From NCBI GenBank assembly GCA_044892505.1, contig CM097882.1:282100001-282164000 (forward strand): 64,000 nt of DNA, written 5' to 3'. The DNA is from Schmidtea nova. Its lineage: Eukaryota. The translations under genes were made by a program, and so were the position numbers. The notes under the pieces are model-generated. The model saw only the letters and a program-made list of their open reading frames with translations. It did not search any database and had not been told where the DNA came from. Shown in pieces: positions 11,572 to 62,647 of the stretch. Position 1 is the stretch's first letter. The number at the start of each line of letters is the position of its first letter.

Positions 11572-14500
11572 CTAGTTTTGATAAACTTGAATTAATTTTT
11601 ATTAATTCCACAAGTAGTATTTAATTTGATTAATTTTTCATACTTTTTTGCTATTTTAAGCATCACTACAATCCTATTGGTGGCCTAGGACATTTTATAT
11701 AAAATAACATATTTCCTATGGTTACTGATCACAATAAATTATTTTCCTATTATATTCATCACATTTATGAAATACTGACAAAATTATCATTATTATCTCT
11801 TTTCACTATTGATCTTTTCGTTTCTAAATACACACTCGAAAAAAGCTATGTCAAAAATTTATGTACTCTAAAAAATTGATATAGTTGTTAAAAACTGACA
11901 AAACTGCTTATTAAAATTAATACCCAAAAATGTGCAGATAAGCCCCAGTACGTCTTTTTTACGATAATCTTTTTTATTAGTGTTTTAATTTTGTAAGGAG
12001 AATTTTAAAGTGTATTTTTACAAATTTCATTGTTTTATAATTGGATTTTTAAATTTTAAATTTCTCTTCCAGAAAGAAACTTAGGTACCTCTGGATTATA
12101 TACTTTTAAACACTGGCCACCAAATGAGTATGAGCTAAAATAACCTAAGGGTCAAAGTAGGATTACCTATTGATGTAATATTAATATATAATTCATTAAT
12201 TTAATGTGTGCATTAGGCGTTACATCTTTTAAGGATAATAAAAAGTTACATAAATTGAATGATATTACATACGGTGATGAATTATATTTACTATCATTAA
12301 ACAACATTAAAAGCAACATAATTATAAACATTGCTATGAATTTAAATTATAAGATTTATATTATATCGTACGAGGAAGTACTTTGACTTTTCCTTTGACC
12401 TTACACAGTCTACGCACTTGACAAAGAACTATTGCCTTTTTTTATAAGACTTGAAATTATGTGATCATAATTCCTCCTCGGGTGGATCAATAAACTGGTA
12501 GAGCGTTGACAGAACGCGTATTATGTCAATATCAATTATTTCAAGGAAAAAATATTTCGCTGTTTTAAATAAATGTGTTTAAAAACAACGAAAGAATGAT
12601 TGTGATTTGTGTCTACAGAAGCGAGTTTAAAAGATGAATAGATATCGATGTTAACTTTAAAAATATCCAAAAAGAAACTGTGGTTCCAAGCGAATTAGTT
12701 TTTTAAAGCCCTATCTATATGTTATTCGAAGTAAGTTGAATCTTAAGGAAGCTCATTATCAATGGCTATTTGCACAGAAGCATTTTTAAATACTACAGAA
12801 AAGACTTTTGAGCATAAAAAACAACATGATTTTCATTTGAGAAATAATTCATCTCAAAGCGAAATAATATATTTTAACTGAAGACATTAGATTACAAGAG
12901 GGAGAATGCAAAAGCATCAATCGCTTTTTTCTTTTTGAATTGATATAAACATATTCTGGACTTCGGAGTATATGTATAAATCTTGAATCCGACTCGAGAG
13001 AAATTAACAGTAGCTCAAGTGTAACTTCAAAATATCTTTATTAATCAAATAACTTTATTTTTGGGTGTGCAATCACATTATATTTTATAAGGAAAAGCTA
13101 CATTTTTAACAAGGCACTTTTTACTAACCTATTTTTTCACTTTATTTAAAATAATCAATTTATTGGAAATTAAAAATAAAGCAATTTAGTTACCACGAGG
13201 TGTAACTTTATTATAAAATAATTCTCTATCTAGCTTTCAATAAAAATCCCTAAAAGCATAATAATCATAATATCCGTGAAAAAATAGAATTTACCCGTAT
13301 GCTTATATTTATTTTTAAATAAAGGATTTATAATCATGCTCATATTACATAATTACCGCAGTACGTTCTGTAACTTTAGTATTAATTTAATTATGAGATT
13401 TTTCTATACCATATTAAAATATTATTATCTACTGATTGTTATAAGTAACAAATTTTAGAAAAATGATTTTTGATTATTATTATTTTTTAAACATAAGCAC
13501 GACCGTATTTTATTATATTACTGATAAGATCAATTATAATAGAGATATTTTGATAGAATTTTTCTGATCTGAGAATTTCTCAGATCAGAAAAATTCTATC
13601 AAAATATCTCTATTATAATTGATCTTATCAGTAATTTATATTTTATATTTCTCAGTGAGAAATATAAAATATAAATTGTGTCAGTGCATCACATGATTTT
13701 TCATGGGTTAAAACTAGTTGAATATTAATTAGTAAAAGGTCTGTTTTAAGTTCATATGCTTATTTATAGGTTATTGTAGAGAAACATTCACATTCATTAT
13801 TATATTGTCCTTTGGTGGCTAGGCAAAGAAATAGACAAAGATATAATATTTGTTAAAACGTACACATAAACTGTCGGAACGACAGTCAGATTTTAATTAA
13901 TTCCTAAATATAAGCCCCATCCTTTGTTTCAAAACCCTGAACACATTAATTGGACGGGATTGTGAAATAGATATTAATATGTCAATTACTATCAACTCTT
14001 CATTATTTTATCTAAAGCTCTATGGAATTGGTGCTATTATTTTTAAAAATATTGATATAGTACTAAAACTTAAAACAATATAGAATAAAAACTTACAAAG
14101 AGTGAAGTCTATTGATCATTTTGTGTACAAGTTCAATTCCAGCTTGAGCAGGACTAATTTGAATAGAAAGGTTAAAAGAATTATGAGCCTGGCTATTTTG
14201 AATAGGTTGATTGATATTGTGAGCATTATAATTATTCGGAGAATGATGTAACCCAATACCCGACAATGATGTAAAAGAAACTCCAGAATTAGTGCGCATA
14301 ACTGTGTAATTTGTCGGCATTGGCAGCATCATACCCTGCTGCCTAGAATTTGACATAAATCCAGAGTTATGGTGAGTACCTGACAATGTATTTGGCATTA
14401 TATTTGCAGGCCCTGAATTACAATTGGGAACCGATGATGAGAATTCAGACGGTATTGACATGTTCATTTGGGTTAAATTATAAAATTCCATAACTTCCAT

Positions 14501-17500
14501 GATAATGTCTTTCATTAGAAATGGGTTTTGAATAAATTGAGATATAAGCACACAATAACGATTTACTTCTTCTGCTCCCAGTAATTTGGCCAATCTAATG
14601 GTCCACCGGATATTCGTATCGTGACTTTGGGATTCAACTGTTGAAGAGACAGGATAATCATTTGGTTCAGAAGCTGAAGATGGATTAAAATATAATGGGC
14701 GACGAGAATTGTTTGAATTTGTTGCGTTTGATGGATTAGTTGCAGTGTCATTATTGTCATTGCTGGAACTTTGTAATTGCTTGAGAATCAGAATAGCTTT
14801 CATTGCACTACTAAATGCTTTACGCAAGTACTCATAAGCGCGATTATCAGGAGACTGTGAATGATATGTCGATTGTTGAGAAGGAGAAGTTTGCTGAACA
14901 ACTGGAGATTGATTCGCATTATTAACATTTGTGGATGGTCCCGAATTTAGGCTCCTAGTAGGATTGTTTGGGAATATATTAATAGGTGATGGGAGAATAT
15001 TAGATCCAGGATGAGGTGGTTGTAATTGATGCTGAGATATAGTAGTTGGTTGGAAAAAGTACATTTGACGATGCTGAATATTTGTAACGTTGGATGGAGC
15101 GATATTAGGCTGTAAGCCCCTGACTGGCATTATTTGAAAATGTGATATGTACGGAGATTGGCAAAGCAAATTAGATGGCAATATTTGAGTTTGAGAAATA
15201 GCATTCTGGCCTGTAATGATATTACTATAGATCCATTCTGAAAATTATTTAATGATAAAATTTCACTGAAATCAAAAAAATATTTAACTAAAAAGTTTGC
15301 TTTTAATACAATATTTTTTAAATCATATTTGATGAATTTTCTTCTTTATAAAAACACTTGACAAGTGAGCAATTAATGAGGTAACAATAGCTGTCGATTT
15401 AACTTATTAATTATTTAAATGATAATTTTTGAAAATAAATTTTATTTATAGGTTCAAAATTGGGTAAACTCTTTGTTAACTCAACCTTTTGAACTACTTA
15501 GTTCCCATAACTTATAAATCAAAGAAATAGCTCATAACTTTTACATGCTTCCATTAGTAGTTAAACTTTCGTAAATAAATTCAGAAATATATGAAAAATA
15601 CAAACTGCTATATAAATACCTCTTGATATATAATATCCTTTATTTCCATTTCATTGATGAGTACTATGTCATCAATGAGCTACCGGCGATTGTTGTTATA
15701 TATCGTTGTTTAGCATTTAAAGGGTTAAATAAGTAAATGTGAGAATATAGGAAAAGAGCAGAGTTTTTGAGTGAAATATTTAGTAGATCTTTACTTGAGG
15801 CCCACAATAGTTTTTCATATTTTGTTATTCTTTATTTCAATATTGTTTACAGGCATGATACCTGTCTATGTGTAGGCAGTGAAGCTAAAAGGTTCTTAGA
15901 CTCGCATAAAAATAAAAAAGTTATAACAAAGTTCTTTTATAATCAAAACAAGATACAAATCAAGGTTATAAATCTATAAATTGTTTTAAGGTTTTAATAT
16001 TTAATTTCAGTTATTCGGCAGTTTAAAAAATGTTTGATGCAGTGGAATTTAGAAGTGTAATTCGGTTTTTACTTTTAAAGTTAGAAAAGAAAGAAATTAT
16101 TCAACAGATTGAAGCAGCATATGGAGAAGAGGCTCTATTAAGAGCAACAAAATATAACTGGATTAGGAAGTTTTCGCCCGATAGAACAAATGATTTTGAC
16201 AATGAAAGAAGTGAAAGACCTGGAAGATGGATTGAAAAATCATTGCAAAATTGAAGGAAATTGTGTCTAAGAATAAGGAAATCACGCAGATAGAGCCACT
16301 GTAAAAACTAAACTTTTGCAAGAGAACAATACAGCTTTGGTTAAATTAATTGGGAATCAAGAAATTATATCAGGTTCGTTCCGCAGAATTTGGTGGCATA
16401 GATGATGGATAGACAAAAAGTTGCTACTAAAAATAATCTTTTTCTACTGGATTGTATCGGACCTAGCTTTCTGACATATATTATGACAGCGAATAAGACT
16501 CTTTTGAGACTCTACATACCCATACTCTAGACGAGAATCTTAAAAGTCGATATTCTTCGGAGAGAAGCCACCAAAGGTAATTTGTTCAAGCACTTCACAT
16601 CGCAAATGAGTCGTTGAGTGCATTTTTGGATGTTAAAGAAGTCTGGAAGAGCGATTTTTCCAACGGCTACATCAACTCGGAGTACTATGCCACTTCGATC
16701 AATAAAGTCAGGGCCATACGATGAAAGCCACGAAACCAAGACCTAAATTTCGCACATCTTATCGAACACAGGAAGCAATAGCAAAATGTGGTTTTGTTCA
16801 GTTGGACTATCTGGTGATTTTAGGTTATTCAATCATCTGGAGAAAGATTTGAGAAGTAAAATAATTGAATCAAAGCATAATTTGTAGGAAGATGAAGAGA
16901 AATGATTTTCAAATCAATGCTGGGCCGTTGGAGAAAGTGCTTCAGTGTTAATGGAAGTTATGTTGAGAAATAAATCCTAAATATTTGTATTGTTGATAAT
17001 AATGAATTTGGTTTCACTAATTTTCTTATTTCTATGTGAGTCTAAGTCTTTAGTTTGAGATAATTTTACGCAGTTTCACAAAAGAATTACACATTATGCA
17101 ACATTCACCTTCTTTATATTTCGACAGGTTTATATTTGGTTTGTTTTAAAGTAACTTCAAGGTTTGTTCTTTCTTCGGCAGGTTGAAGAAATGAAATGGC
17201 TTCTTTCTTGTCAACTATTTATAGAAAATAGTTTTTGATGATAGAAAATTTTCGATGAAGAAAATTTGAGAAACTGATTTAAAAGATTTTAAAATTATAT
17301 TAAAAAACTTTAACAATAAATGGGAAAGAATTTTATGTGAGGCGTTGGTGATTAAATCACAATCCCCTACAATTAATATTCAATCAGCAACGAATTTATT
17401 GAGATTATTTAATTAACTCATTTCTGTTTCCGTATATAGCATTTGATTTAAATTATGATGGCAGACTGATGATGAGGACCATGTCCTTGAAATATATTTC

Positions 17501-20500
17501 TATTGTTTGGCGATTTCGTGTTTTTATTAATAATAGGCCATCATTTTTTCGATATTTAGATTTATCAATTATATAAAATATCTAGTTTTCTATTTAAAAT
17601 GAATTTTCGGTTTATTTTTTATATGTTTAGAACAGTGTTTCTCAATCAATGCGCTATGACAAATATAAGCGTGCCCACCGATACTTTTAAGTGTACCGTG
17701 AAATGTTATTAAGTCAGTTGAAAACACCACGGAATAAAATGAGAAAATCAAAAATATGATTTGATTTGAAATCCATTTAAAAATTGTTTTCAAATATTAT
17801 CTTCAACTATGTGAAGAAGGATTGGTAGCATTTCTAGTGATCGTGGATTTAAATAAAAACTCCATAGTGTTTATTGATACATTTTGGATTTCAACACAAA
17901 AGAAATGTCTCACGTTAGATAAAAACGCTTTATCAGTTTTGTTACAGTTTCCGACTTTTGATTTCTATTAATTGGGCTTCTTAAACCTGAATAAGATCAA
18001 AAATTGAAAAGCGAAAGAAAAAAGTGAGTATGTTTGTTACATATTCAAAAAACATTGAAGAAATTGCAAAAAAACGTATAAAAAGCATAGATTTCAACCT
18101 AACTAAGAAAGTTCATAATTGACTAGATAGAAATTGGATAATCATGGCCTAAATAATCATGAACCATGTGAGCGCAATAATATCTTTTTTTACTCACGTC
18201 TGTGTGCGCACTCGATGTTTTTTCTAGCTCACGTCAGTATGCGCAGTTCAGCAGGATTTAATTGTTTTTTTAATAATGGAATTTATGAATTGTCAGACTT
18301 GGTGAGCGCTTGTATAGTAAAACTATAGTAAAACTATCCCTCGCTCTGTATCCATGCATTGTTCGTTTTTTAGAGCGCTAATGTGGGGCCTGGTGTGCAT
18401 TTTAACTTTAACATGCGCGCGTGAAATAGAGAGAAGTTTAATTATTTTTTTCCGAAGTGGAAAAGGAGTCGGAGAGTCGATTAATTTCTATCGACTCTGA
18501 CTCCGACATCGACTCCTCGAAAAACCTTCGACTTTTCAACTCCTCGACCCCGACTCCCCCATCCCTGGCCATGAGTAGTAGAAAGCCCAAAAATTATGTA
18601 CAAGTATAAAAAATTTACTGTTTTTATCAAATATTTTTTAATTTTTACAGTTAAACAACCAAGCAAACCCAATCATCTCATTAAAAAGATTCTCTTATAC
18701 TTTTTCTTGTTATTTTTTGTAATATATATTTGAAGCTTTTTTCTTAGTGACGAATATTTTTATTTTTTTAATAGACAGTTTAGAACTTATTCCCAGAAAC
18801 GGGAGAGTTTTTCCTAGGTTAGTGATGTGGGCTACGCATGCTAAATAACGTTGAGAACCCCGGGTTTAGATTATACGAATACAAAATATACTCACGGTGA
18901 TTTGCATTACCAGAGTGACTAACTAGTGGTATCGGAGAGCCAAATGACCCAGTGGGGAATGAACCCCCAGGAAGTTGTGGAGCAGCTTGTGACATAATTA
19001 AATTTGGGATATTGTGAGGATTAAACAGCTAAATTTTATCACAATACTTTACAAAATAAATAAAATATAGAAATACCTGTGGAATAGCCGGCATCATGTT
19101 TGTAGTGTACTGATTAAGATTAGTTGCATTAAACGATGGCTGAAATGAAGGAGAAGATGACGGAAGATTTGAAACGGATACAGTAGGCTGAGGTAAAGCT
19201 GCCACATTAGATTGGGTAGATATTATATTAGACGCTGGAATACCACTTGAAATCGTGTGGCATGTGCTTTGACTAATTTCTCCTTTATGAAGTTGATACC
19301 AGGCATTGGCTAAATGGAAGTAAATAATCGGCTGTACTCCCGATAAGGAGTTATTAGCTCCACTTTCAACTGACAACAGGCCTCGTTCTAGCATTTCATT
19401 AGACTGATCACTGCATTGCCTTAATCCGCGTAGTATTTGATTCGGATTCAAAGTAGAACTTTCCGCTAGAACTGCGAGACACAATTCAGCACCTACTCTA
19501 CTCATTTGTGTATCACGTCGTCTAGATACTCGGTAAGCAATTTCTGCCACTTCTGATGGATTGAGGTGATGCCGCCAACTGTGAAGCAGGACACAAGCAG
19601 CTGAAACACCAAAATCTACAATTTGAGTGGAAATCCATGCGACGTGAGAACTATATGTACGACTTTGCCATAAGGGATTTAAATGATTATAGAGGCCTAG
19701 TGCATAAAGCCCCAATTGAAAAGCACAAAGCTGTAAATTGCGTTGGGCTAAGTGATTTGGTGCAGTAGATGTGGTAGAATGTTGATTGGAACCGTGATTA
19801 GAGGAAACGGTTATATTACTATTGTTCACACGAAACACTGGCGTGGAACTATCATCGGGAATACCAGCTTTTTGTAAAACAGTTTGGGCCAACTCAAACA
19901 TGTGATGTGCGAGAGATTCGGTGACGACTTCAACGTAATTGACTTGTTGATCTAAAAAACAATTACTATTTTCATTTTTCTGTTGAATTTCAGCAAATTC
20001 TTTGTCAGTATTGTGAGATTCTTTATTAGAATTATTCAAAATATTAATATCACATAAGAGAGGTGAAGATGATGACATTTGAGGAGAAGATGATCCAGAA
20101 AGTGAAGTTGAGCGACTAGATTGAGAATGTTCCCGAATAACCTCCGTAACCTTTTCAGGTGAAATATCAATAGGTATTTTATTGTTCAGTTCATCTTCCA
20201 CTGCCACAACTTCACTATCCTCAACAGTTTTATTGTCCACTGTTTCTCCACCACAAGGAATACCATCGGCAATAATTCTGTAAAGAGGAGTTGTTTGGTT
20301 AATAGGAAATATTCGCTTTCTAATTGTAGTTGGAGAGTTGTCACTACTCTCAGTTGTTTCAGGAGCACTACTATCGACTGCAGCCATTCCAGTTGAATGT
20401 TGGTTGAATATCCGCTTTGAAGTAGTAAAGCAGCGTAACTTTTGTTCCCATAACTGTTACAAAATTAATTACAATAAATGCTTATTCTGAAGAATAAAAT

Positions 20501-31423: not shown

Positions 31424-34075
31424 GTCCGTTGGATGATAGCATGTCACTTTTTTCCTCGGAATTTAAATGACAAAAATTATTTAGATATGCTTAAATCTTG
31501 ATTCATATCATAGTTCAGTCGCAGAATGCTTTATCTAACCCATACTTTCTTCATAATAATCAACACCCAAGTAACATTCAACTGAAAAACTTCCGTTATC
31601 ATTTGGTAAAAGATATATCAAAGTATAGCACAAAGAAATGGTTATCCAAAGATTGCCATAAGCCAAAACGTCATTCAACTACCCGAAAAGCACTTCCAAT
31701 AACAAATTTTTAAGCCAGCCACAAAATCATCAACACAAGAGCATTGTTACGTTTGTAATACTTCAATAAAGTAAAAAATTAACAAAATATCAATTCAATG
31801 GATTTCTTGTAGGATTGTGTTGCATTATGTGCTAATAATGAAAATGTTATTCAATTAAAAAAATAATCGTTCTCATTATCAGAAAATTTCATTTAAAAAA
31901 TTAGATTTAGTCAAAAAATGAAAAGATCAAAGGCGAACAAAATAAAAGAGGTTCATGATTGTTCTCATTATATTATTATTATTATTATTATTCGATATTT
32001 GAGAGAAAAGGTAAGAAAACAAAAACAATTTCCAAGAAAGAAATATTGGAAAAAATCAATAACAAATAAAACCTCATATGCTTCATCCGTTTCTATGTGA
32101 TATTCTGAGGACTTGTTGCTAGCACTGAAAGTTGTAGAGAGCACATTGTTATTATTGGAGTAATTATACCCTCGGTGTCGACGGATGTTTTTGTTGCTAG
32201 AGGAAAAGTGATTTTTAAAATGATGTGGCTGTTGCAATTGAGTTTGTGAATTGTTTCCAAAATTATGATTTAATTGATTGACTTCATTAGATTTTTGGTA
32301 TTCAGAAACTTTTTGTATAAGTGCCATTCTTGCCAACCGATAGAATTTTTCACAAATTTCCACTTTTTGTTTTAGCATTTCTTCCGCTAACTGATATGCC
32401 AATTGAGCTGCCTCATTTGGATACCCATGATAGCAAAGGGCTTCACATTTCGCATATTTCAACTAAAATTAAATACGAATTCTAAACTCAAAATAATAAT
32501 TTTCTTTATAAATATTATTGTTTTTCATAATGTATTTAATAAGCTCTTAACCTTAGAATAATAATAAAAAATTACAAAAGACTTTTGTTTTGGTATTAAA
32601 TTTCGCTAATATAATGTAATGCTTACTAATAAATTAATCAAATTTAAATTAATTGTTAATGAATAATTTATCATATTTAAAACCAACTATAAATTAATCT
32701 AGTGTTGTCTTACACTGAGATTTATAAATTAATGGAAGAGGTACTGATTTTTTTAAACACCGTTGATTTTTCGTCTTCCTTATAACAGGTAAAGGAATAA
32801 ATAGTTCAAGTTGTATTTGCACATAATATGAAGGTATTTCTATTATTTTTTATCTAGTAACCAGGTGCTCTCATCTCTTTACTACAAGCCAATGTTTTTT
32901 CGGAAATGTCTTCCAAAAAACGCACGTTTCATCTGCATTAAAAATAAAATCATCGCATATCTTTTTGAAATCGATAAAGGCTTTTACAGTGGAAATAAAA
33001 TTGTCAATTTTATTTGTATTGGTAGATAACGTTTCATCAGTTATTTAAAGTTCCCGAATATCACGCGAACTTTTAAAATTATGTAGCCTCATGGCGATAG
33101 CTTTGAAGTGTTCCCTAGCGCTTATTTCCTCATTGAAAATAGAGCCTTTTTGCACAATATAGGGCCAGATTTGATAATTAAAAATTTACTGTATATAAAA
33201 TTATGAAAGTAATTTATAATTACATTTTACAATAAAATCTTATACATATTAATATGATTTATGTATTTATATCAACTAAGCAATATCGAGAGAATAATAG
33301 CTGTTTAAATATTCGATTTGACAACGTTCAGTTTTGAAATTGTAAAATTTATAATATGATTCACTAGGTATTTGAGTGACTCTGAAACACTACTGATTAT
33401 TATAAGTAATATACACATTTTATAAAAATAATTCATTATAATAAATAATATGAAATTAAAAAATAAAATCAATGTCTATAACGTTAGAAGAAAGTGATAC
33501 TATCTCTCGAAATAGAAAACACTTCATATGGACTCTTTGTACCCGATATTAATATTGTTGTTCGGAGTCATTGAATATGAATTTAAACAATAGAAGAAAA
33601 ATTGATATTTAAACAAATCTCTGCCATTTTTGAGGGGTTATAGCTAGTATACTAATAAATATTAAATATGTGATATTTTTGTAAACTTCCTTGTAAGTTA
33701 TATGACAGACGGTTTTATGGGAAACATGAAGCAGAAGCTTCAGGGTCCAGCTTTACAAGAGGCGTCACAATAACAAGGGTTTTCTGATTTTTTTACAATA
33801 ATGTTAATTTATTTAATCATTTATTATGTTTGTATAATAGTTGATCAATTTTCTTCTTTTGTTTCTTGTTGTACAGATATCTTTTGAGATTGGACAAATA
33901 ATATATTGGATTTTGTTTAGAAATGATAAATTAATATTTAAGAAGAAACTAAACAATCACATAAAATGTATGATTTTTGTATTACAATCCTTTAGCTAAT
34001 TCTACAATTTTTGATAAGTGCTGTGTAAAACACATAGACGCATATATAGTATATTTCATTTTTAAGTAACTTGAA

Positions 34076-49810: not shown

Positions 49811-51228
49811 GATTTAATGACTTATAAATATAGCTTCTCGCCATAAACTGCAGCTGTCTTATTTAAGGCATTCAAACAAACGTTCTAAATCTAAGTTAAT
49901 TTTATAAATTATTAAGAAGGATTTTACTGTATTTTTACGTTTTTAAATAAAATTAATTTGTTTTCAATTAATTTAATTATTTTTATTTATAGAAATGATT
50001 TTTGGATATAAACTTGTGATAATTCAATTTTTTAGAAACTAATAATTATTTGTTGATTTTGAAATATAATTCATTTTTAATTTTATATACATTGATAATA
50101 TATACTTTAGCGTATAATTAAAGTTGTTTTTATAAATCAAGGCATTTTTATTATTTTGACTACTGATAACAAGTTTAAAAAGATTATTTCTAGAATATGG
50201 AAATGATGGTAGTGCTGATGTTTTGTAGGTGGTTTAATAATCAGACTTTAATACTTCTTTTGAAACACATAAAAACTAATTCCCTACTGTTGCCATCCGT
50301 TGCTTGGCAACGTTGGTACTGTACCAAGGGGTTGAATGTGTCTGCAAAATGTGAGCTGCATCTTCGCGACTGCTAATGCCCTGGCAATTCATTAGGTCCA
50401 AGTACCACAGATAGAAGGTTATTTTTACTTTTTATTCTGGACCCATCATGTATCTAATTTATCCTTACTTTCCAAATATCTTTGAATAGAAAATAATTAT
50501 GATATACTCTAATAGAAACATTTATATTTAAATGTTTCTTTCTTTTAGAATTTATTTACACTCTTCCTCAGCCTAATTACTGTTAGACAAAAATGGAATT
50601 CTTTTTAAATAACCTGGTAATACAGTATGTAGAGAGGGCGCACAAAGTGAACTTAAAATGTGATTGAGAAAAACACCAAGTAAAACACAGTAATAACAAA
50701 ACACATGAAATAATTAATTAAAATCAATTAAAATGAACAAAAGCGCATTAGGTATACATGTTAAAAATACACGCAGAACATAAAACACTAATTATGCAAT
50801 AAAATAACAAACTCGGAAAAATTAACATATTGCTGGTTTATTGGTGTTATTTACAACGGAGATTCTAGTTGATATTAAATGTCAGGGTAATCTCGCCAAC
50901 ATAAACACGCTTTCCCCGCTGATACCCATGATGTGTCCCTAACTACTCATCATGTTGGTACTGTATCAATATTGTGAAATGATGAGGCAGGTGAGCAACC
51001 TTGCGGCTACTATTCCTTCATTTATTCACGGGTCCACCACTACCAATAGAAGGTTTATGTGGATTTTTTACGGCCCCAATTGATCTATACGATTGATCTA
51101 TACGAATTGATCTATCCCTGGCCTCCAAATGAATCGCGTATATTATTAATTTGCTCAATCACTCACTTATTTCATCACACATTACTCGCCAATCCACAAC
51201 AAAAACAAGACCTTCGAACATAATACAT

Positions 51229-52490
51229 TTATTTCCCTAAAAACATGGTTGGATTTATAATGTTGATTAGCTGCCTCTCAGATAAGCCACTGAGTAGATC
51301 AACTTCGATACCAAGCCTTTCTGCATACGCCCTTCTCTCTCGTCGACGTTTAGCCACAAGACGGTTCCTTTTCTCTGTCCTCGTCAGCTTAACCTGGGCC
51401 GGTTGTGCGGTCGATGTCTCTCTTTCGTGTGTCGTACTAACGACCTCCTCTGTCTGCGTCGCCATATTCGTATTAGTGGGGGTTACCCATCTATCAAACG
51501 GACTCACTCGGATCAGTGGTTTCAACTGTCCTTCGAAAAACTTTCGATTCGATGCCCGTAAGTAATTATTCAATTCCAGCCTGGCAGCGGCTGTTTCTCG
51601 AGCCTGCTCCTCCAGCGCTCTTTCTGCTCGATACCGACGCTGCTGTATCTCTTTCACTTTTTCGGGATCGAACCATGTTTTATTTAGGGTATCAATTTCC
51701 ACTGTTTGACGACTTATATGTCGCTCTAAGAGTGTATTCGTCTCTGCAATTGTCGCTGATTGTCCGTATCTACGTCTTTCAGTACTCGATCCATCTACAA
51801 TTTATATGGATATTATACAGGCTATATCGGTTTTACAAGACAGCTCCTACTCAACGCGCGATTCCCTTTTTATCATACCTCTTGGTCACTACATTTATCA
51901 TTCATCCATTCATTCCACATCAGTCAACATCAATTTTCGTCCAAGTTTACCCAATCTTGATTACATGGGCTTTCTGGTTTTCGAATACCAATTGGATAGA
52001 AGTACTCATCGTTCGGTTTCCAACATACCCGGTCCTGGTGGATAAAGATCTCTCAGAGTTGAAGGCTTGGCAGCTAATTTGCCTGATTTGCACATATACC
52101 CCAAGGTGAATTTGTGTACGGCCTGCGCTCTTCTGTCTGGACATCCCTCGGTTGGTCCAATAGAACAAATCCTAATCTTTGTAGAACATGTCCCGGAATT
52201 GACATGAAACTAATCATCCAACGAGGTGTGCCAATTTGATCCTCCAGTTGCAGGAACCATTTCCGTGATGACATTGATATGGATGGTCCTGACGGCGGCT
52301 ATTGAGCATCTCCTTCCCATCGAATATTAATTGTGTACGAGTCATTTCTCGCATTGGCCGTTAGATTACTATGGCTCCGTTTAAGATATCGTAGGCATCG
52401 TTCGGCTCGTGCTTTTATCAATGGGGGTATCCGTGAGGTTTCTCTCGGCTTCCGAATCTTTTGGGCTACAGATTTCTTTGATGTTGTCAT
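51229..52490 (-). pseudogene. Degenerate long ORF of unknown function
   Basis: ORFs 52299-52490 and 52074-52274 plus downstream sequence share one frame with scattered stops. A frameshift leads into the frame of ORF 51229-51702 (basic, coiled-coil-rich). Confidence 0.5.
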
Positions 52491-53735
52491 CTCTACAACG
52501 ATTAATACGCATTAGTTCCATCATGATCTCCCTTCACGTCAACTTTCGGAAATACCTCAGCTCACCCTGTATCTTGCTGGCGCACTGACTACCTTTGGAC
52601 ACAACATTCAATCATCTCAATCGTCCCTTCATTCATACCACATTATATCACCCGGTCAACATTTCGTCACGCATTCCATTGAACATCCTGTTTCCCACTT
52701 TACCATTCGTCTCGTCGTTATGCTTTCGCACTCACCATCGTCACAACATCATCTCCTCATTGTATTAATGCTAATCGTTATGCCTTCAAACATCGTTCAT
52801 GCCGTGCTGATTGTTTTGTTATTAGTTGTGATGAAACTTTATTTCGGTATCGATCTATCAAAACTCAATTCAGGCATTCGTTCGCAATTCGTACCACATC
52901 ACCAGCAATCATATTCAATCATGTCTCCTCACATGTATTTTGAGTATGTACTCATTTCTGTCAAGAACGTAATTCACTTGGTCTTTGTGTAGAAATCAGC
53001 ATTAGAACGTTTTCTGCTAGTTGTATCTCTGGTGCGTGTGATTCTAACCTCTGCATGCAAAGAATCGTTACTATCCCTACCTGGAACTCATGCTCCTCAC
53101 CGATGCTCTCAGTAGATTCAACATTCATCTTCAATCATCTCTATGAGCATCCCTCCCATATCGTTTAGTCGCATTGATCTACGCCGCATCAGTCAACCCC
53201 GGTAAGGTGCTGTCTGAGAGGCCCAAATCTCCTGTCAGGTACGATGACTTTCGGGATGTCCTATTCATTTTAGTTATCATGAGGGTTTAATATGAAATCA
53301 CAATAATAAACACTTACACACCTTTATTACCAATCCTTCAATAGGTTTACAATTTACTTCCAAGTTTGATACAAAATAACTTTCAAGGTTCAGATCGTTG
53401 TCAATAAAAATTACCACTTGGTAAAAATGACTGACTGCACTGAATTTGGCTGCCGTATTTATACTTGTTTTTGCCGCCGGCCAACCAATCAGATTTCAGG
53501 GTGTGTGTGAGTTTGTCATTGATTTCATTTTCAATACCCACCATTACGTTTTTAATCTGATGAGTTTGTCTGTCGATGCGTAACATTTTTTCACTAATAT
53601 TTATTTTAGTTTTGTTGTATTCTTTGCACCGCTCACCCCCGCGTTGTTATCTTAAGTAACTTAGTGTTTCACTTGTCAGATTTATGTCATTTGTCTATCT
53701 GGTTACTTCTCGGGTGTTCTACTCTCGTCTCAGCC

Positions 53736-54041
53736 ATGCTCGGCAATTTTGTTTTGCATGGTTGGTTTTGTGCTGGTAAGTTTTATTACTCACCATTATT
53801 AATGTTATTTTATTTCAGGCTTTACTGCTCTCCAATTTATCGGTGGTAATTTTATTACTGTCGGTACATTTGATTGCTGACATATTTTTGACAGCTCTCA
53901 TTATCGTTCTGTTGGTTGCTATCTATTTCGTTCCGGTTCGGTGGTAAGTTATGTATTTTATTACCGCTTTATTATTACGTAATTTGTTTCAGGCTCGTTA
54001 CATTTACTGCGTTCTGCTTGTTATTGATGTACCGGTTGTAA
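53736..54041 (+). CDS. Four-exon micro-gene encoding a 54-aa highly hydrophobic peptide, antisense to the retroelement
   Basis: Exons 53736-53775, 53819-53845, 53895-53943 and 53993-54041. Introns of 43, 49 and 49 nt have GTAAGT/GTAATT donors and TTTCAG/GACAG acceptors. Spliced frame: MLGNFVLHGWFCAGFTALQFIGALIIVLLVAIYFVPVRWLVTFTAFCLLLMYRL*. CCAATCAG upstream at 53485. Confidence 0.55.
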
Positions 54042-54486
54042 TTTAGATTTTTCTTTATTTATTTGTTTTTAATATTTATTTTCTTGTTTTTAAATTGATT
54101 TGCCTGGCCCAACATCACTGGGGGTCCCCTTAAAGTTGCGTCCCTCAATTACATACATGCACTTACGTCAAAATACATAAAAAGTTCGTGACAGAGTTCA
54201 CATGCAAAACCACATAAGGTGGTTTTGATATTTCTCCAGTTGATATTTCTCTATCAGTCGTTCGCGTTGTCGTACTTCGTAAAACTGACATGCCATCACG
54301 TCGTTTAATTCTATGGTTCTTCGTTCTAATTCCCCTTCGCATTTCCTTTTGATTTCTCTTTCTACTGCTTCTTGTTCGGTTATTGATTCGTTTCTCGATT
54401 CCTCGTCCGTTATAAGTTCGTTTACGTTTTCCATTATTGACGATTTTTACACTTTATTTACAGGGTCATTCACTCCACTACTCCAA

Positions 54487-55890
54487 TTATCCTTTCGTTG
54501 ACTTCTTATTCAACATTGTCGTGCTTGTTTTCTTTTCGACCTCCAACTCCACATATAGGATGTCGTCGTACAACATTTCCCATTTTTTACTTTGTACGGT
54601 GAATTTTGGTTCTCCTGTTGACAATGAACATTTTGTGGTTGGTCTTTTGTAAGCTTCGTGCTTCCCATTGATTTTGAATATTCTCACTATCGTTTCTCTC
54701 GAGTTTTTGATCTTCAACGTCGTCCTTGCTTTTAATGGCCATTCCAATATGTCGTCGTATCCACCTTTGCACAACGCAAAGAATAATGACACATGCGTTT
54801 CTTTTCCTGGTCCATCTCTATTTGGATAAATTCTCATTCTGACTTTGTATCCATTTTTCCACAGATAGAATGGTGGACTTGTCACTGACATTTGTCTTCC
54901 TGTTTATGCTGCTGTGAACTTATCATTGAAGTTCGTGATTTTCCACACGTATGGTGCAACAGGTAGGCTTTTTATGTCTTTCACATATCGAATCCATATC
55001 CAATGTCGTACATTTTCCCTTTGCCAAGTTCTCTATGACTGTGATTTTCTCCATCATTTTCTCTCTGGTGAGCTCGAATTGCTCTCTGGTTTCCAGCAAT
55101 AGTTCCGTCATTATCCTTTGGGATTCTATTTCCTTTTCCAACTTCTGTATTGTTTGTTCCATTTTGCTCACATTCTCTGTCAACATCTCCACGTGTTGTA
55201 CAGTTTCCGTTTCTAAATGTTCTTTCATCTCTTTGCTTGTTTTCTTTACTTAGCATCCCTGTTTACTCCATACACACTTTCTTGGTTTCGATTCACACTG
55301 CTCCCAAAGTTTTCCGTAGTATCACTTCCTCTGGGATTCCACAAATGTTTGGACATCTACCTCTGAATTTTTCACACACCTTCTCTCCTGATACGTTGAG
55401 GTGCTCTGTTTTGATTATTTCTCTCATTTCTCTTTATTCGCAATGTTGACACTCTACTATTTCTGCCTTGCACTCCTTCTTGTGATTTTCCAACTGTTTG
55501 ATGGTTGTCGTCTGTTGACATTTTTCGCATATTGTTTTCTTGTTCTCGCATTTCTCCAGATGTTGTCTCAATTCGATTATTTGTCCCTTCCATTCGCATG
55601 GTTGATTTATAAACTTCGTTTTTATCTTCCAGATCTCCTTTTGGATTGCTTTGTCTGGTTTCATTTCATTGATCAGTAGTTTATCGTCAAATTCTGGACA
55701 CTTCCTTGTCCCACCTTTATTGATTATTTGCAATATACATTTTGTGCACATTCTGCATCCACACTCTGCTTGTCTCGGCTTCAACAACAAGTTTTTACAC
55801 TTTACACATATTACGGTTAATCCCAATTGTCGATTCTCTCTACGCAAACTTTCGATTGTTTGGTAATCTGCTTCACTTTCTGCTCTTATT
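54487..55890 (-). pseudogene. Intronless TRAF-like coding region (RING, TRAF Zn fingers, coiled coil, MATH), interrupted by stops and frameshifts
   Basis: CVKCKNLLLKPRQAECGCRMCTKC; CEWKGQIIELRQHLEKC; CVWSKQGC..EMKEHLE..QHVEML; PYVWKITNF; SPPFY..GYKVRMRIYPNRDG.GKETHVSLFFAL.KG.YD.IL.WP. Confidence 0.9.
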
Positions 55891-56621
55891 CTACAATTTT
55901 AATTCTACAATGATATTTACATCAAGCTTTCATATTTCTGATTTTTCTGGTTTCGTTTTATACACATATATACAATTTCCCGCTTTATTTCACTACACAT
56001 CTTCAGTCGAGCCTGGCTCTGGATATACGTCTATCTCATTTACAATCCAGTTTGTCCAACTATCTGGTATCTCTTCCACTTCTTGTATCGTTAGCCGATT
56101 AATCTCTTCTGCTTGCCAGTCGTTTACTTCTTTTAGCATCTGATTTTCATTCTGTAATTCATTTATCTGCTGTTGTTGAATCTCAATTTTGTTCATCGCT
56201 TCAAAATTGCAGTTGTAACTCTCGGTTAGTAATTGCGTCTTCACCGTCAATTGGCTTCGTAATTCATTTACAGTTCTGGCTAGCATGTCACATTGCACTT
56301 TCTATCTAGTCATCATGGATATTTCTGAAGTTTCTTGGTTCATCGTTTTTCTGGATTATATGCATCATTCTCTTTTTCTCGTTTTTACGTTTTATAATAT
56401 TTATACCCATACGTATACGGTTATGCATTGATTTTTACATTACTATTTACACGCATATTCCTCCCTCTATACAACTGTTACTGGTTTTCCTTCATAACGC
56501 TTCTCGTCTTCGATTTGTTCCCACATTTCTTTGCATTTCGATCTTCTTCTAAGTTCTTCTCGTACTTTCTTTGGTAGCTCCATGCTGTAATTCATGACCT
56601 TTACATCTGGCCATTGCACTG

Positions 56622-58400
56622 TTATAGTCTAATTCTCATGCCATACATCCAACATACTACCATAATCGTTATTAGTGGTATACACGCTATGAATACTCCC
56701 ATGCTAATCAATCCCATTACTCTTTTGCCAATACTCATTTCTTTTGTTTTGCTTTGATTTATCATTACACCATATTGACTTTTCCATTCAACTTTCCATT
56801 GTTCGTATAGTTGCTGTCTCTGTCTGATTTCTTCGATCACTTTCTCAGGTTTCCATCTTTCTTGACGATTTGGTATTGTTTCTTCGGTCTCTATTCGTTC
56901 TCTCATCTGACTCAATTCTCTGAATTCTAGTCTTCTGATTCTTCCTTTTATCATCGTATTTCTTGACGTATAATAGGTTTCGAACTTTTCTTGTTGGTTT
57001 CCTTGTGCATCTACTGCTTCTATTGCACAGACTTCGTATTCTGCATTTGTTTTTAACTTCTCCATTTTGACTTCTATAATTCCTTCTTTTCCGCTTCTCG
57101 TTGTCCTCTGACAATTTCTTGGAGACTTTCCCACGTTATTTGGCATTAGTTGCCAATATATTTCTAAGACTTTCTTATGGATCTTCCATATTATCAGAGT
57201 TGTCGATTCTGGTTTAACTTCTTTTTCCGTTGTTACCTCATTCATCGTTGTCTGTTGAGTTCGTTAGTTACTAGTTATAGTAGTCCTTCTTGACTCCTTT
57301 CTTTTCGGTGGACTTCTCATTTCAATTATTCTCGTTCCGTTGATTCTCTCTGGTGTCTTGTACAATTTGCACTCTAGGCTTCTTTGTATTATTTCTCTTC
57401 TTCTTCTGATTACACAAATTTCGTATGTCTGTCCGACTTCGAATCCGTCTAGTTGAAATGGGATTCCTGGTTCTCTCGTTTTACATTGTGGTATTATGCC
57501 GCTGGTTGATAGTCCGATATATTTTCTCCAACACATTCCTATCGTCCTTGGGCTGACGTTTTTTATTTCTACTGTCACTACTTCGTTTGCTCTCGCTTCT
57601 TTGTTTTGCTTCTGTCTTTTCGGAAACTCGATTGTCTCCTTTGGTTTAAACACTTTACACTCGCTCGTTCCTGGTCTGTTTCCGTTTGTTGCCTTTTCCA
57701 CGAGACATAGTTCACATACTTTATCATCTCCATTTCGGTTATTTCGATCGCTTTATTTGTCTCTGCCTTTCGACTTTCTTTAGTTTCGCTGAACCCAATT
57801 ACTTCATTGTTTCTTCCCCAACATCTTCCGTCCGTTGTTCGTTTGTCTTTGATGTTAACAAACGTCATCACGCTGATATCTATTTCTTTCTCGATCCTCT
57901 TAATTAGGATTAGTATTAATGCTACGCATATCAATTCTGGTTGAAATGTTAAATTCCCCGCTGGACTTTTAGCTGCCCTTTCTTTCTCTGTTTGGTTTCC
58001 GGTTACCTCTTCCGCTTCGATTTGATTCGTTCGTCTTTCTGGTTCTACTTCTGTTTTTTTCGTTGTCTCTTTATTTCTTTTCCCAATGCCGTTTTGTATT
58101 TTCAGCGCTCTCGTTGCTTTGTACAATTGACATGCCGTTACTTGAGGTGCTTTTGGTTTTCCTCTCTGATTTACTGCGCATATTATGTATGACTTTTCTT
58201 TCTCCAATCCTTTGATTTGGATGACGTCTCGTTTCAAATCAGACAATATACACTTCAGCGGTTCTTTCTTCTTCATATTCTCTTTCCAGCATATTCGTTC
58301 GCGCATTTCATCTCTTCTGATGATTTCCAACTTGGCATATTGTTTCTCTGCTTCGCCTTGTCCGATGAGTGTTATTAATTTTGCGAGGCATAACATTTCT
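56622..58400 (-). pseudogene. Four FN3-like modules followed by a transmembrane helix
   Basis: Repeated motif: IKGLEKEKSYIICAV; ITEMEMIKY(E)LCLV (frameshifted); LDGFEVGQTYEICVI; MEKLKTNAEYEVCAI. Hydrophobic GLISMGVFIACIPLITIMVVCWMYGM near 56640-56718. Confidence 0.55.
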
Positions 58401-60978: not shown

Positions 60979-62141
60979 TTATTGCATTCTTTCTTTGAAC
61001 TTTGTAACATAATCGTCAACCTCCATGTAATGCGATAATGGCGGTTGGTATTCCAAGTCAATTGGTAGGTTGCAATCTCTTCCGTACATTAATCGGAATG
61101 GACTTAGCTTCGCCGCCGCATGTATTGACATTCGATATGCCATTAAACACAAGTTAATATATTCGTCCCAGTTTGTTTGATGTCTACTCACATAATTTGA
61201 TAGCATGCGTATCAATGTTCCATTGAACCTTTCTGTTTGACCGTTCGTTTGTTGATGGTATGGGGATGTTCGCAATTTCACAATTCGGAAGTAATTCGTA
61301 ACTTCATCCAATATCTTACTCATGAAATTCGTTCCTTGATCCGTTAGGATTTTCTTTGGTGTTCCGTATCTGCAGCATATCTCTTCCACCAATATTCTCG
61401 CGACTGTTTTTGCTTTTTAGTCTGGTATTGCGAATGCTTCTGGGAACTTCGTCAGATAGTCCGTGACTACTAATATGTACTGATTTCCTTTTAGACTTTC
61501 TGGTAATGGTCCAACTACATCCATCGCTATCGTCTACATTGGTTCTGCATTGATTGGCATTGGCTTTAATGGTGTTTTCCACTTCGTTCCGGTGTTTTTT
61601 CTTGTCGCACAGATTAGGTAATTCTTTATCCACTCCTTTACGTCATCTTCCATGGTTGGCCAAAAATACTTTGTCTTAGTCTCACGATTGTCTTTTTTGC
61701 TGACATATGTCCACCTAATTTTCCGTCGTGGTACTGAGTCATGATCTCTTTTCTTCTATTTGCAGGTAAGCACATCAATCTCCGTTCTCCATTCTGTATT
61801 AACAACCATCCTTTTTCCATCACGTATCTGTGTTGATACTTCTGCATATGTTCGCGTAATACTTGGTTCTTGCTGAATATTTCCATATCCTTTTACTTGA
61901 TGATCAGTCCCAACTCGCCATCTTCAAGTTGATCTTTCTTTAGCTCTTTGAAGTCCAAATCTTCGACTATTAGCACGCATATCTTGGGAGCATCCAGATT
62001 TACCAACTCTGGGAATGTGAATCTTGACATGCAATCTGCGTTTGCGTTCGCTTTTCCTGCTTTGAACTTTATGAATGGCGAGTATTCTTGTAATTGCATC
62101 GCCCAACGCATCAATCTACTTGATGATGCTGGTTCTACCCC
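60979..62141 (-). pseudogene. Gypsy pol remnant: RNase H end plus integrase
   Basis: ORFs 61893-62207 (retroelement part up to about 62141), 61638-61886 and 60979-61392 carry canonical Gypsy RH and IN motifs with stops and frameshifts. Confidence 0.92.
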
Positions 62142-62647
62142 AAAAGGCAAACAGACAAAAGGCCGACACGAACACAAGGCCGACAGACAAAAGGCCGACA
62201 CGGACAAAAGGCAGACAAATAAAAGAACACTTGTAATAGCAAAAACTATTAAATAAAATCGGGGGATTCCTGGAAAATCTTTGATTTAGAATTTGATTTA
62301 GAGAATTCTAAATCAAAAACTTTCCAGGAATCCCCCGATTTTATTTAATAGTTTTTGCTATTACAACTGGGTTTTTTTGTTAAAAAAATGGGTTTTTGTT
62401 AAAGAGGTAATTATTATTTTAATTAGTTTAATGAAACGAAACATATATTTATATTTATTTATTTATTTTCCTTCATGGAATAGCTCACAATTTAAATTAT
62501 TTCTAATTTGTAATTAAATTTTTTATAGAACAAAGTATTTATAGCTAATTTTTATTTATTTTTTTTTATCCGTAAATATTCTGCCTTTTGTCCGTGTCGG
62601 CCTTTTGTCCATGTCGGCCTTTTGACCATGACGGCCTTTAATCCGTA
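62141..62647. mobile_element. MITE/foldback element with 15-bp tandem units (GGACAAAAGGCCGAC) as inverted ends, enclosing a hairpin; abuts the truncated pol
   Basis: Left array 62141-62214 and right reverse array 62579-62647. Internal hairpin at 62231-62366 with about 63-bp arms. Confidence 0.8.

Follow-up and report, generated by a model that had tools for sequence, protein, structure and literature searches.

A TRAF gene as a standing accessory gene of Burro-type LTR retrotransposons in Schmidtea nova

A TRAF gene lying in line with a Gypsy-type integrase in a 64,000-nucleotide stretch of the Schmidtea nova genome (here called the window) raises the question of whether the gene belongs to the retroelement or came to lie beside it by chance, and of what such a gene would do there. 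The original prediction, made from the letters of the window, was of a complete, intronless TRAF gene carried as retroelement cargo. The gene limits that it gave agree with those obtained by alignment to an unbroken copy (55889 to 54478, 83% DNA identity), and all the motifs that it named lie on the minus strand, follow the predicted order, and are co-oriented with the integrase 6 kb upstream. The absence of introns also holds for the window copy, with 7 gap positions in 1,413 aligned to the unbroken copy. The description as complete was wrong: a tblastn search with the unbroken copy recovered three pieces, 76 to 90% identical, in three frames rather than in one open reading frame (ORF), and the ORF list shows only a 154-amino-acid RING piece. 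Alignment to the unbroken relative places frameshifts near 55320 and 55017 and four stops in total, at 55436, 55252, 54906, and 54489; the start codon is missing, and a compensated pair of small indels lies near 54600. The window TRAF copy is a dead pseudogene.

The retroelement around this copy is truncated (Table 1). The window aligns to a whole element of the same family, designated family A, over 7.9 kb at 82% identity, and the pol and ankyrin region has decayed like the TRAF, with 10 stops over five pieces. An internal deletion, at which the alignment skips from 31709 to 33363 of the reference, has taken the rest of the ~390-codon ORF and the ORF next to it. The element is cut off at ~62130, and the 40 kb beyond hold no further part of it. 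Exactly at this truncation point (62140 to 62640) lies an element whose inverted subterminal repeat arrays are 88% identical over 60 nt. Antisense inside the long terminal repeat (LTR), on the plus strand, are two small GT-AG intron-like stretches (53776 to 53818 and 53944 to 53992); one similar stretch occurs in the family A LTR, and a spliced antisense transcript is possible. Elsewhere in the window, a 383-amino-acid ORF on the minus strand (14093 to 15244) has a ZSWIM4-8 C-terminal match and is perhaps a Mutator-like transposon gene, and ORFs at 892 to 1887 and 19029 to 20456 have no Pfam match.

Table 1. Features of the TRAF copy and of the truncated retroelement in the window
Feature	Coordinates	Strand	Remarks
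TRAF gene copy, pseudogenized (RING, TRAF zinc fingers, coiled coil, MATH)	54481..55889	-	Three tblastn pieces, break map
RING finger, Cys in the usual His ligand position	55683..55808	-	CGCRMC at 55763-55746
TRAF zinc fingers	~55613-55250	-	
Coiled coil	starts ~55231	-	
MATH/TRAF-C domain	54535..54960	-	79% identity, one internal stop (54906)
MATH motifs	WKITNF 54945, SPPFY 54879, GYK 54852, HVSLF 54795, WP 54741	-	
Spacer before TRAF	55890..55995	-	Two TGTA[ACT]ATA (55974, 55921), splice-acceptor-like end; putative function
~120-codon coiled-coil accessory ORF, one stop	55996..56355	-	84% identical to unbroken copy
Polyprotein 3' half, broken: two ankyrin blocks, FN3-like repeats, hydrophobic segment	56470..60980	-	Pfam Ank_2
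RNase H end and integrase, broken	60981..62130	-	HHCC 61709; core motifs 61524, 61344, 61233
Stub of ~390-codon ORF 3' of TRAF	54235..54430	-	DNA alignment
3' LTR, 3.3 kb	50831..54114	-	Matches the family LTR at both ends, diverges in the interior

Family A is large. A DNA search of the same genome returned 674 candidates, and the 39 other scored ones were 83 to 86% identical to the window copy and nearly all full length; in a search with the MATH domain, 141 of 150 scored matches belonged to family A. These and all other family copy counts are lower bounds. The 476-codon open frame that the window copy lacks is retained in 99 of the 141 family A matches. The position of the gene is fixed: the end of the polyprotein or the 120-codon ORF lies within 1.5 kb upstream in 27 of 30 loci, and the next element ORF lies downstream in 30 of 30 and 29 of 29 loci (overlapping sets). 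Two of five 40-kb neighborhoods contain whole elements, one 26.6 kb and one 28.8 kb long; the 3.3-kb LTRs are 99.5% and 99.9% identical within each pair, and both elements have 4-bp target duplications. The remaining three neighborhoods are rearranged or incomplete. One whole element contains a 4,132-codon ORF with, in order, zinc knuckles, fusion glycoprotein, protease, reverse transcriptase (RT), RNase H, integrase, and ankyrins (Pfam), followed 3' by accessory ORFs of 120, 470 (the TRAF), 396, and 176 codons. The 25- to 30-kb size class, the multi-kilobase LTRs, and the single gag-env-PR-RT-RH-IN-ankyrin polyprotein are those of the Burro giant elements. The TRAF is a standing accessory gene of this 26- to 29-kb Burro-type LTR retrotransposon. 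By Pfam, the family A polyprotein holds neither MATH nor BIR, and there is no BIR gene in the family A element; identity with Burro-1 was rejected on the strength of this polyprotein, and family A is a sister family.

Several further features of these elements were observed. An ORF of ~155 codons with an IAP-type RING precedes gag in families A, B, C, and D and in a Burro1-like family. The 5' LTR of families A and B is followed by a common primer-binding-site-like sequence, which we take to resemble the 3' end of tRNA-Pro, and the family A LTRs hold two ORFs of ~210 codons without a family match. In families A and B, the polyprotein ends (window 56470 to 57750) in FN3-like repeats, a hydrophobic segment that is probably membrane spanning, and a conserved short tail, a lead to a receptor-like membrane protein; the repeats reach an Atlas FN3 score of 0.89, below the 0.9 mark, and are likewise a lead. 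The tail carries a PxE motif that presumably resembles a TRAF6 site, which we rejected as such because of its shortness and its absence from the window copy.

A full TRAF occupies the same slot in four sister families, B to E, and the ~120-codon coiled-coil ORF likewise keeps its slot in all five. The family B TRAF is 53% identical to that of family A and present in at least 150 copies (150 of 150 scored matches among those listed), the family C TRAF is 36% identical (91 of 91 scored matches), and those of families D and E are 49% and 46% identical. RT and integrase are missing from the sampled C, D, and E elements, and the TRAF is kept. Sampled family C copies hold protease and ankyrins without gag, env, RT, or integrase; one such element (contig C1:30094728-30119653) is 25 kb long with 4.25-kb LTRs that are 99.95% identical. 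A BIR-RING IAP gene lies directly 3' of the TRAF in all 12 family C loci checked; its best match is cIAP1, and a search for homologues of this gene gave 0 of 1,003 candidates at an E value of ≤1e-8. Families D and E bear gag; their sampled copies are without RT, RNase H, and integrase, the TRAF is unbroken, and the two copies that show LTR pairs have them 100% and 99.9% identical. A family C variant (contig C2:416797383-416820790) has, in place of the 120-codon ORF, the TRAF, and the IAP gene, a single ORF of 484 codons that starts with a hydrophobic stretch and matches no Pfam family, an instance of cassette swapping. The Burro1-like family has MATH only, inside a polyprotein of up to 5,000 codons (150 of 150 scored matches).

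The substitution pattern shows that purifying selection keeps the element TRAF. Between two young family A copies, dN/dS is 0.18; between the window copy and a young copy it is 0.14, to an older subfamily 0.15, and between families A and B 0.14, where dS is near saturation. For comparison, the integrase gives 0.02 to 0.10. MATH is the least constrained part of the TRAF, at 0.25 to 0.36 within family A. Among 18 unbroken copies of equal length, shared variants are 86 synonymous to 34 nonsynonymous and private variants 72 to 78; such constraint on the variants shared by lineages, with less on private ones, is the pattern of selection during transposition.

We then asked about origin. The element TRAFs form a clade with one unnamed database protein (support, 92/93) inside a larger group that also encloses triclad host TRAFs (89/87); an earlier tree gave 93/95 and 94.7/98 for the same groups, all values to be read with the skewed composition common to element TRAFs, which can inflate clade support, and with rows left out for long branches or redundancy (five in one tree and six more in the other). 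The base composition of the gene is element-like (A, 0.42, versus 0.32 to 0.37 in four host TRAFs), and TRAF identities among families A to E rank nearly as protease identities do, with B-D highest and C lowest. Because of this clade, this ranking, and this composition, we infer one old capture from a triclad TRAF lineage, followed by vertical descent. The best full-length match among 1.84 billion database representatives is 36% identical, and the nearest named proteins are from Dendrocoelum and Dugesia. A metagenome scan with element TRAFs found 1 locus among 178 pattern matches, at 28% identity and with no element protein nearby. The idea of retroelement cargo is thus upheld by the number of copies, their fixed position, the purifying selection on them, and their element-only clade.

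The assignment of TRAF domains is not a chance match, because the unbroken relative scores 3.7e-26 against Pfam MATH_2 and 3e-5 against zf-TRAF, the latter just below the cutoff; the zinc-finger ligands are nearly invariant in a 93-row alignment. A monomer model of the unbroken copy (pLDDT, 92) has TRAF1/2/3 as its best fold matches (Foldseek E value of about 1e-16) and a continuous helix at residues 229 to 304 (block pLDDT, 81 to 98), the TRAF-N coiled coil. Pfam RING models score below the cutoff on this protein, and its N terminus matches that of TRAF6 (3hcs). Eight cysteines, at 28, 31, 43, 45, 48, 51, 64, and 67, are invariant in 18 of 18 unbroken copies, so metal binding by the RING is probably intact. 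In the pocket of the MATH domain, R/Y is kept and the vertebrate serine triad SSS is replaced by HEA in family A and varies from family to family; we take R/Y and the triad to be the receptor-peptide binding residues of vertebrate TRAFs. The altered pocket loop, which bears on the original suggestion that the element might encode a decoy TRAF, fits a changed specificity, and would fit relaxed as well as redirected binding.

The spacers between same-strand accessory ORFs measure 73 to 300 nt. Spliced-leader trans-splicing has been reported for S. mediterranea, with a 300-nt same-strand criterion for operons resolved in this way (PMC12582326). Of 17 accessory ORFs, 14 have a YAG 0 to 7 nt ahead of the first ATG (mean of 2.7 and maximum of 10 in 1,000 shuffles), by a rule that was set after inspecting the sequences and over ORFs that form 8 homology groups and are not independent. 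A YAG also lies within 3 nt of the TRAF start in 23 of 24 family A copies, and the same acceptor-like end precedes the TRAF in families D and E. Both spacing of ≤300 nt and acceptors before starts are thus present as sequence signals. These signals suggest that the accessory ORFs give separate short mRNAs, and either cis-spliced subgenomic mRNAs or spliced-leader trans-splicing would fit the acceptors. Four contig sets of unknown kind cover ORFs and spacers evenly and contain no acceptor joint, and are uninformative on expression. AATAAA is not enriched in the spacers (18, versus 15.9 in shuffles), a test that leaves internal poly-A sites unsupported. In the spacers of families A to C, TGTA[ACT]ATA occurs 16 times in 1,537 nt, versus 1.15 expected (maximum of 4 in 500 shuffles), and it is almost absent from coding sequence; further window sites are at 56451 and 54462. 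We take this motif to be the Pumilio-element consensus; alternatively, it could be a 3'-end processing signal.

TRAF2-cIAP is a ubiquitin-ligase complex, and by analogy with it and from the co-cargo we lean, with slightly more belief than doubt, toward the reading that the element TRAF acts on host death or immune signaling in the favor of the element. Unbroken copies would likely make their own short mRNA via the acceptor just before the start codon; the predicted protein would trimerize and join or compete with host TRAF complexes, and death or immune signaling would be blunted in cells with an active element, a pro-survival effect. The cargo provides a pro-survival context in the BIR-RING gene after the family C TRAF and the IAP-type RING of the 5' small ORF. 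BIR and BCL2-like motifs have been reported in Burro (PMC6431247), and host TRAF2-like genes are needed for homeostasis and cell survival (PMC8807557). Against this reading, family A is without a BIR gene, MATH is the least constrained part of the protein, and the pocket loop differs in every family. A viral TRAF, ORF111L of ISKNV, also speaks against it, since that protein promotes apoptosis (PMC3352826). RNA interference (RNAi) of BURRO1 did not rescue the smedwi-2 phenotype (PMC8532177), a result for another family and another question.

The TRAF might instead serve the cycle of the element itself, as an adaptor ligase, with an element-encoded partner, for particle assembly or release or for removing a silencing or restriction factor. 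The fusion-glycoprotein domain of the polyprotein, the membrane protein at its end, whose short tail is conserved in both A and B, the invariant RING cysteines in 18 of 18 copies, and the remodeled pocket loop are all consistent with such a role. However, the sampled family C elements keep the TRAF beside the IAP gene and are without gag, env, RT, and integrase; an element dependent on others for its particle proteins could in principle depend on them for a TRAF too. We consider this reading rather unlikely.

Quite unlikely, in our judgment, is that the TRAF activates signaling (NF-κB-like, JNK, or even apoptotic) and thereby promotes LTR transcription or the spread of the element. Classic dominant-negative TRAF truncations are without RING and zinc fingers, and the element TRAF, unlike them, keeps both. 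The iridovirus TRAF ORF111L, moreover, drives caspase-8 (PMC3352826). The co-cargo is nevertheless antiapoptotic in kind, with BIR-RING in family C and BIR and BCL2-like motifs in Burro (PMC6431247), and host cell death would rarely help an inherited element.

We hold it improbable that element TRAFs seeded the expanded TRAF family of the host and were kept for host benefit. Nine full-length host TRAFs from seven regions are each a single ORF, like the element gene, and element and host triclad TRAFs fall in one larger clade (94.7/98 and 89/87). However, no sampled host gene nests among the element TRAFs, database proteins P0006 and P0040 falling near the element clade; 23 MATH sequences of a distal contig-2 cluster form their own clade (FastTree support, 99); and the 86:34 shared versus 72:78 private variants are the pattern of selection during transposition. 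Seven of the nine host TRAFs have the CGC RING, and the other two are without that part in the open frame. Neither the absence of introns nor the CGC RING is therefore diagnostic of capture, because host TRAFs share both. None of the nine lies in a Burro layout, and two of the regions have unrelated, decayed Gypsy pol (25 to 42% identity) within a few kilobases. A host TRAF at 416.82 Mb on contig 2 was considered as a gene enclosed by an element, a reading that we rejected, as the nearby element carries no TRAF and its LTR ends 1.8 kb from the gene. Contig 2 holds a large cluster of host TRAF-like genes at about 405 to 455 Mb, in which the RING match is separate from the MATH match in 7 of 12 loci checked, consistent with introns. 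The suggestion that retrotransposition could be a route to the expansion therefore finds no support in the sampled host clusters, which form a separate clade in trees that sampled part of the ~2,400 MATH candidates and fewer than the 73 non-element matches; it stands in the weaker sense that elements supply at least 382 TRAF loci versus those 73 among the matches listed in the family search. Finally, although the window copy has no introns and is broken, a processed pseudogene or passenger that recently landed by chance beside a Gypsy pol, the case named beforehand as refuting cargo, has a negligible likelihood and is rejected, given hundreds of copies in the same slot of five families, an element-only clade, flanks that consist of element ORFs with no poly-A tract or target duplication of the gene's own, a nearest host TRAF ~32% identical, and dN/dS of 0.14 for the window copy and about 0.15 overall.

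Returning to an action on host death or immune signaling in the favor of the element, a fuller picture, which we offer tentatively and think doubtful, would be an operon-like block of captured signaling genes, cut by spliced leader and tuned by Pumilio, that gives the element its own TRAF-IAP ligase module and keeps element-bearing stem cells alive. If that were true, much of the planarian TRAF expansion would be element cargo, and the host would be responding to it when its piRNAs target TRAF, ankyrin, and E3 mRNAs. To our knowledge, whole host signaling genes are rarely kept under selection by retrotransposons. Large viruses keep immune-modulating genes; in a similar way, a complete TRAF has persisted here in five diverged families, even where the copies lack reverse transcriptase. 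TRAF expansion in planarians is described in PMC6109357, PMC7586133, and PMC8807557, in the available text of which no link to elements is drawn ("transpos" is absent from the main text of the last two). Between 121 and 282 TRAF/MATH transcripts are given for S. mediterranea, and PMC8807557 describes their significance as unresolved; SMEDWI-3 piRNAs show an enrichment for mRNAs that encode TRAF zinc fingers and ankyrins (PMC6824462, the main text of which leaves Burro unmentioned). Both questions, transcript abundance and piRNA enrichment, become testable, and element copies may confound counts of TRAF genes as well as RNAi and in situ probes.

A MATH domain has already been published for Burro1 and for an accessory ORF of a Dugesia tigrina element (PMC6431247). 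For a whole conserved TRAF gene as Burro cargo, we found no description in the literature outside Grohme et al. 2018 and Repbase, where ORFs of this kind may be listed for Burro-2 to -4. Burro1/GYPSM1 of S. mediterranea shares with family A the 25- to 30-kb size, long LTRs, ankyrins, TRAF-derived cargo, and a single polyprotein with gag and env in frame before protease-RT-RNase H-integrase, but its MATH lies inside the polyprotein, whereas family A has a whole RING-zinc finger-coiled coil-MATH gene as a separate ORF 3' of it (PMC6431247). The Burro1-like family of the same genome has a 4,706-amino-acid ORF with MATH inside and RT-RNase H 88% identical; its MATH is 39% identical to that of family A, with a support of only 80 for common origin. 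In the D. tigrina element, MATH is in a separate accessory ORF, as here, but upstream of the polyprotein rather than 3', and RING and zinc fingers go unmentioned in the available text of PMC6431247. Triclad host TRAFs (Dendrocoelum lacteum TRAF-2, -4, and -5 and the single-ORF genes of the same genome) share the domain order, the Cys-for-His RING, an HLN-like motif in the zinc-finger region, and the absence of coding introns; they differ in their 25 to 36% identity, low copy number, location outside LTRs where checked, and a pocket closer to canonical. Vertebrate TRAF2/3/5 are the best PDB sequence and fold matches, at about 28% identity, and the element RING differs in its Cys for His. Family C, at the level of genes, pairs a TRAF with a BIR-RING gene, as in the TRAF2-cIAP complex. 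ISKNV ORF111L (PMC3352826) is, as here, a TRAF-like protein encoded by a mobile genome itself, but as a single gene of a large fish DNA virus, and it binds TRADD and promotes apoptosis.
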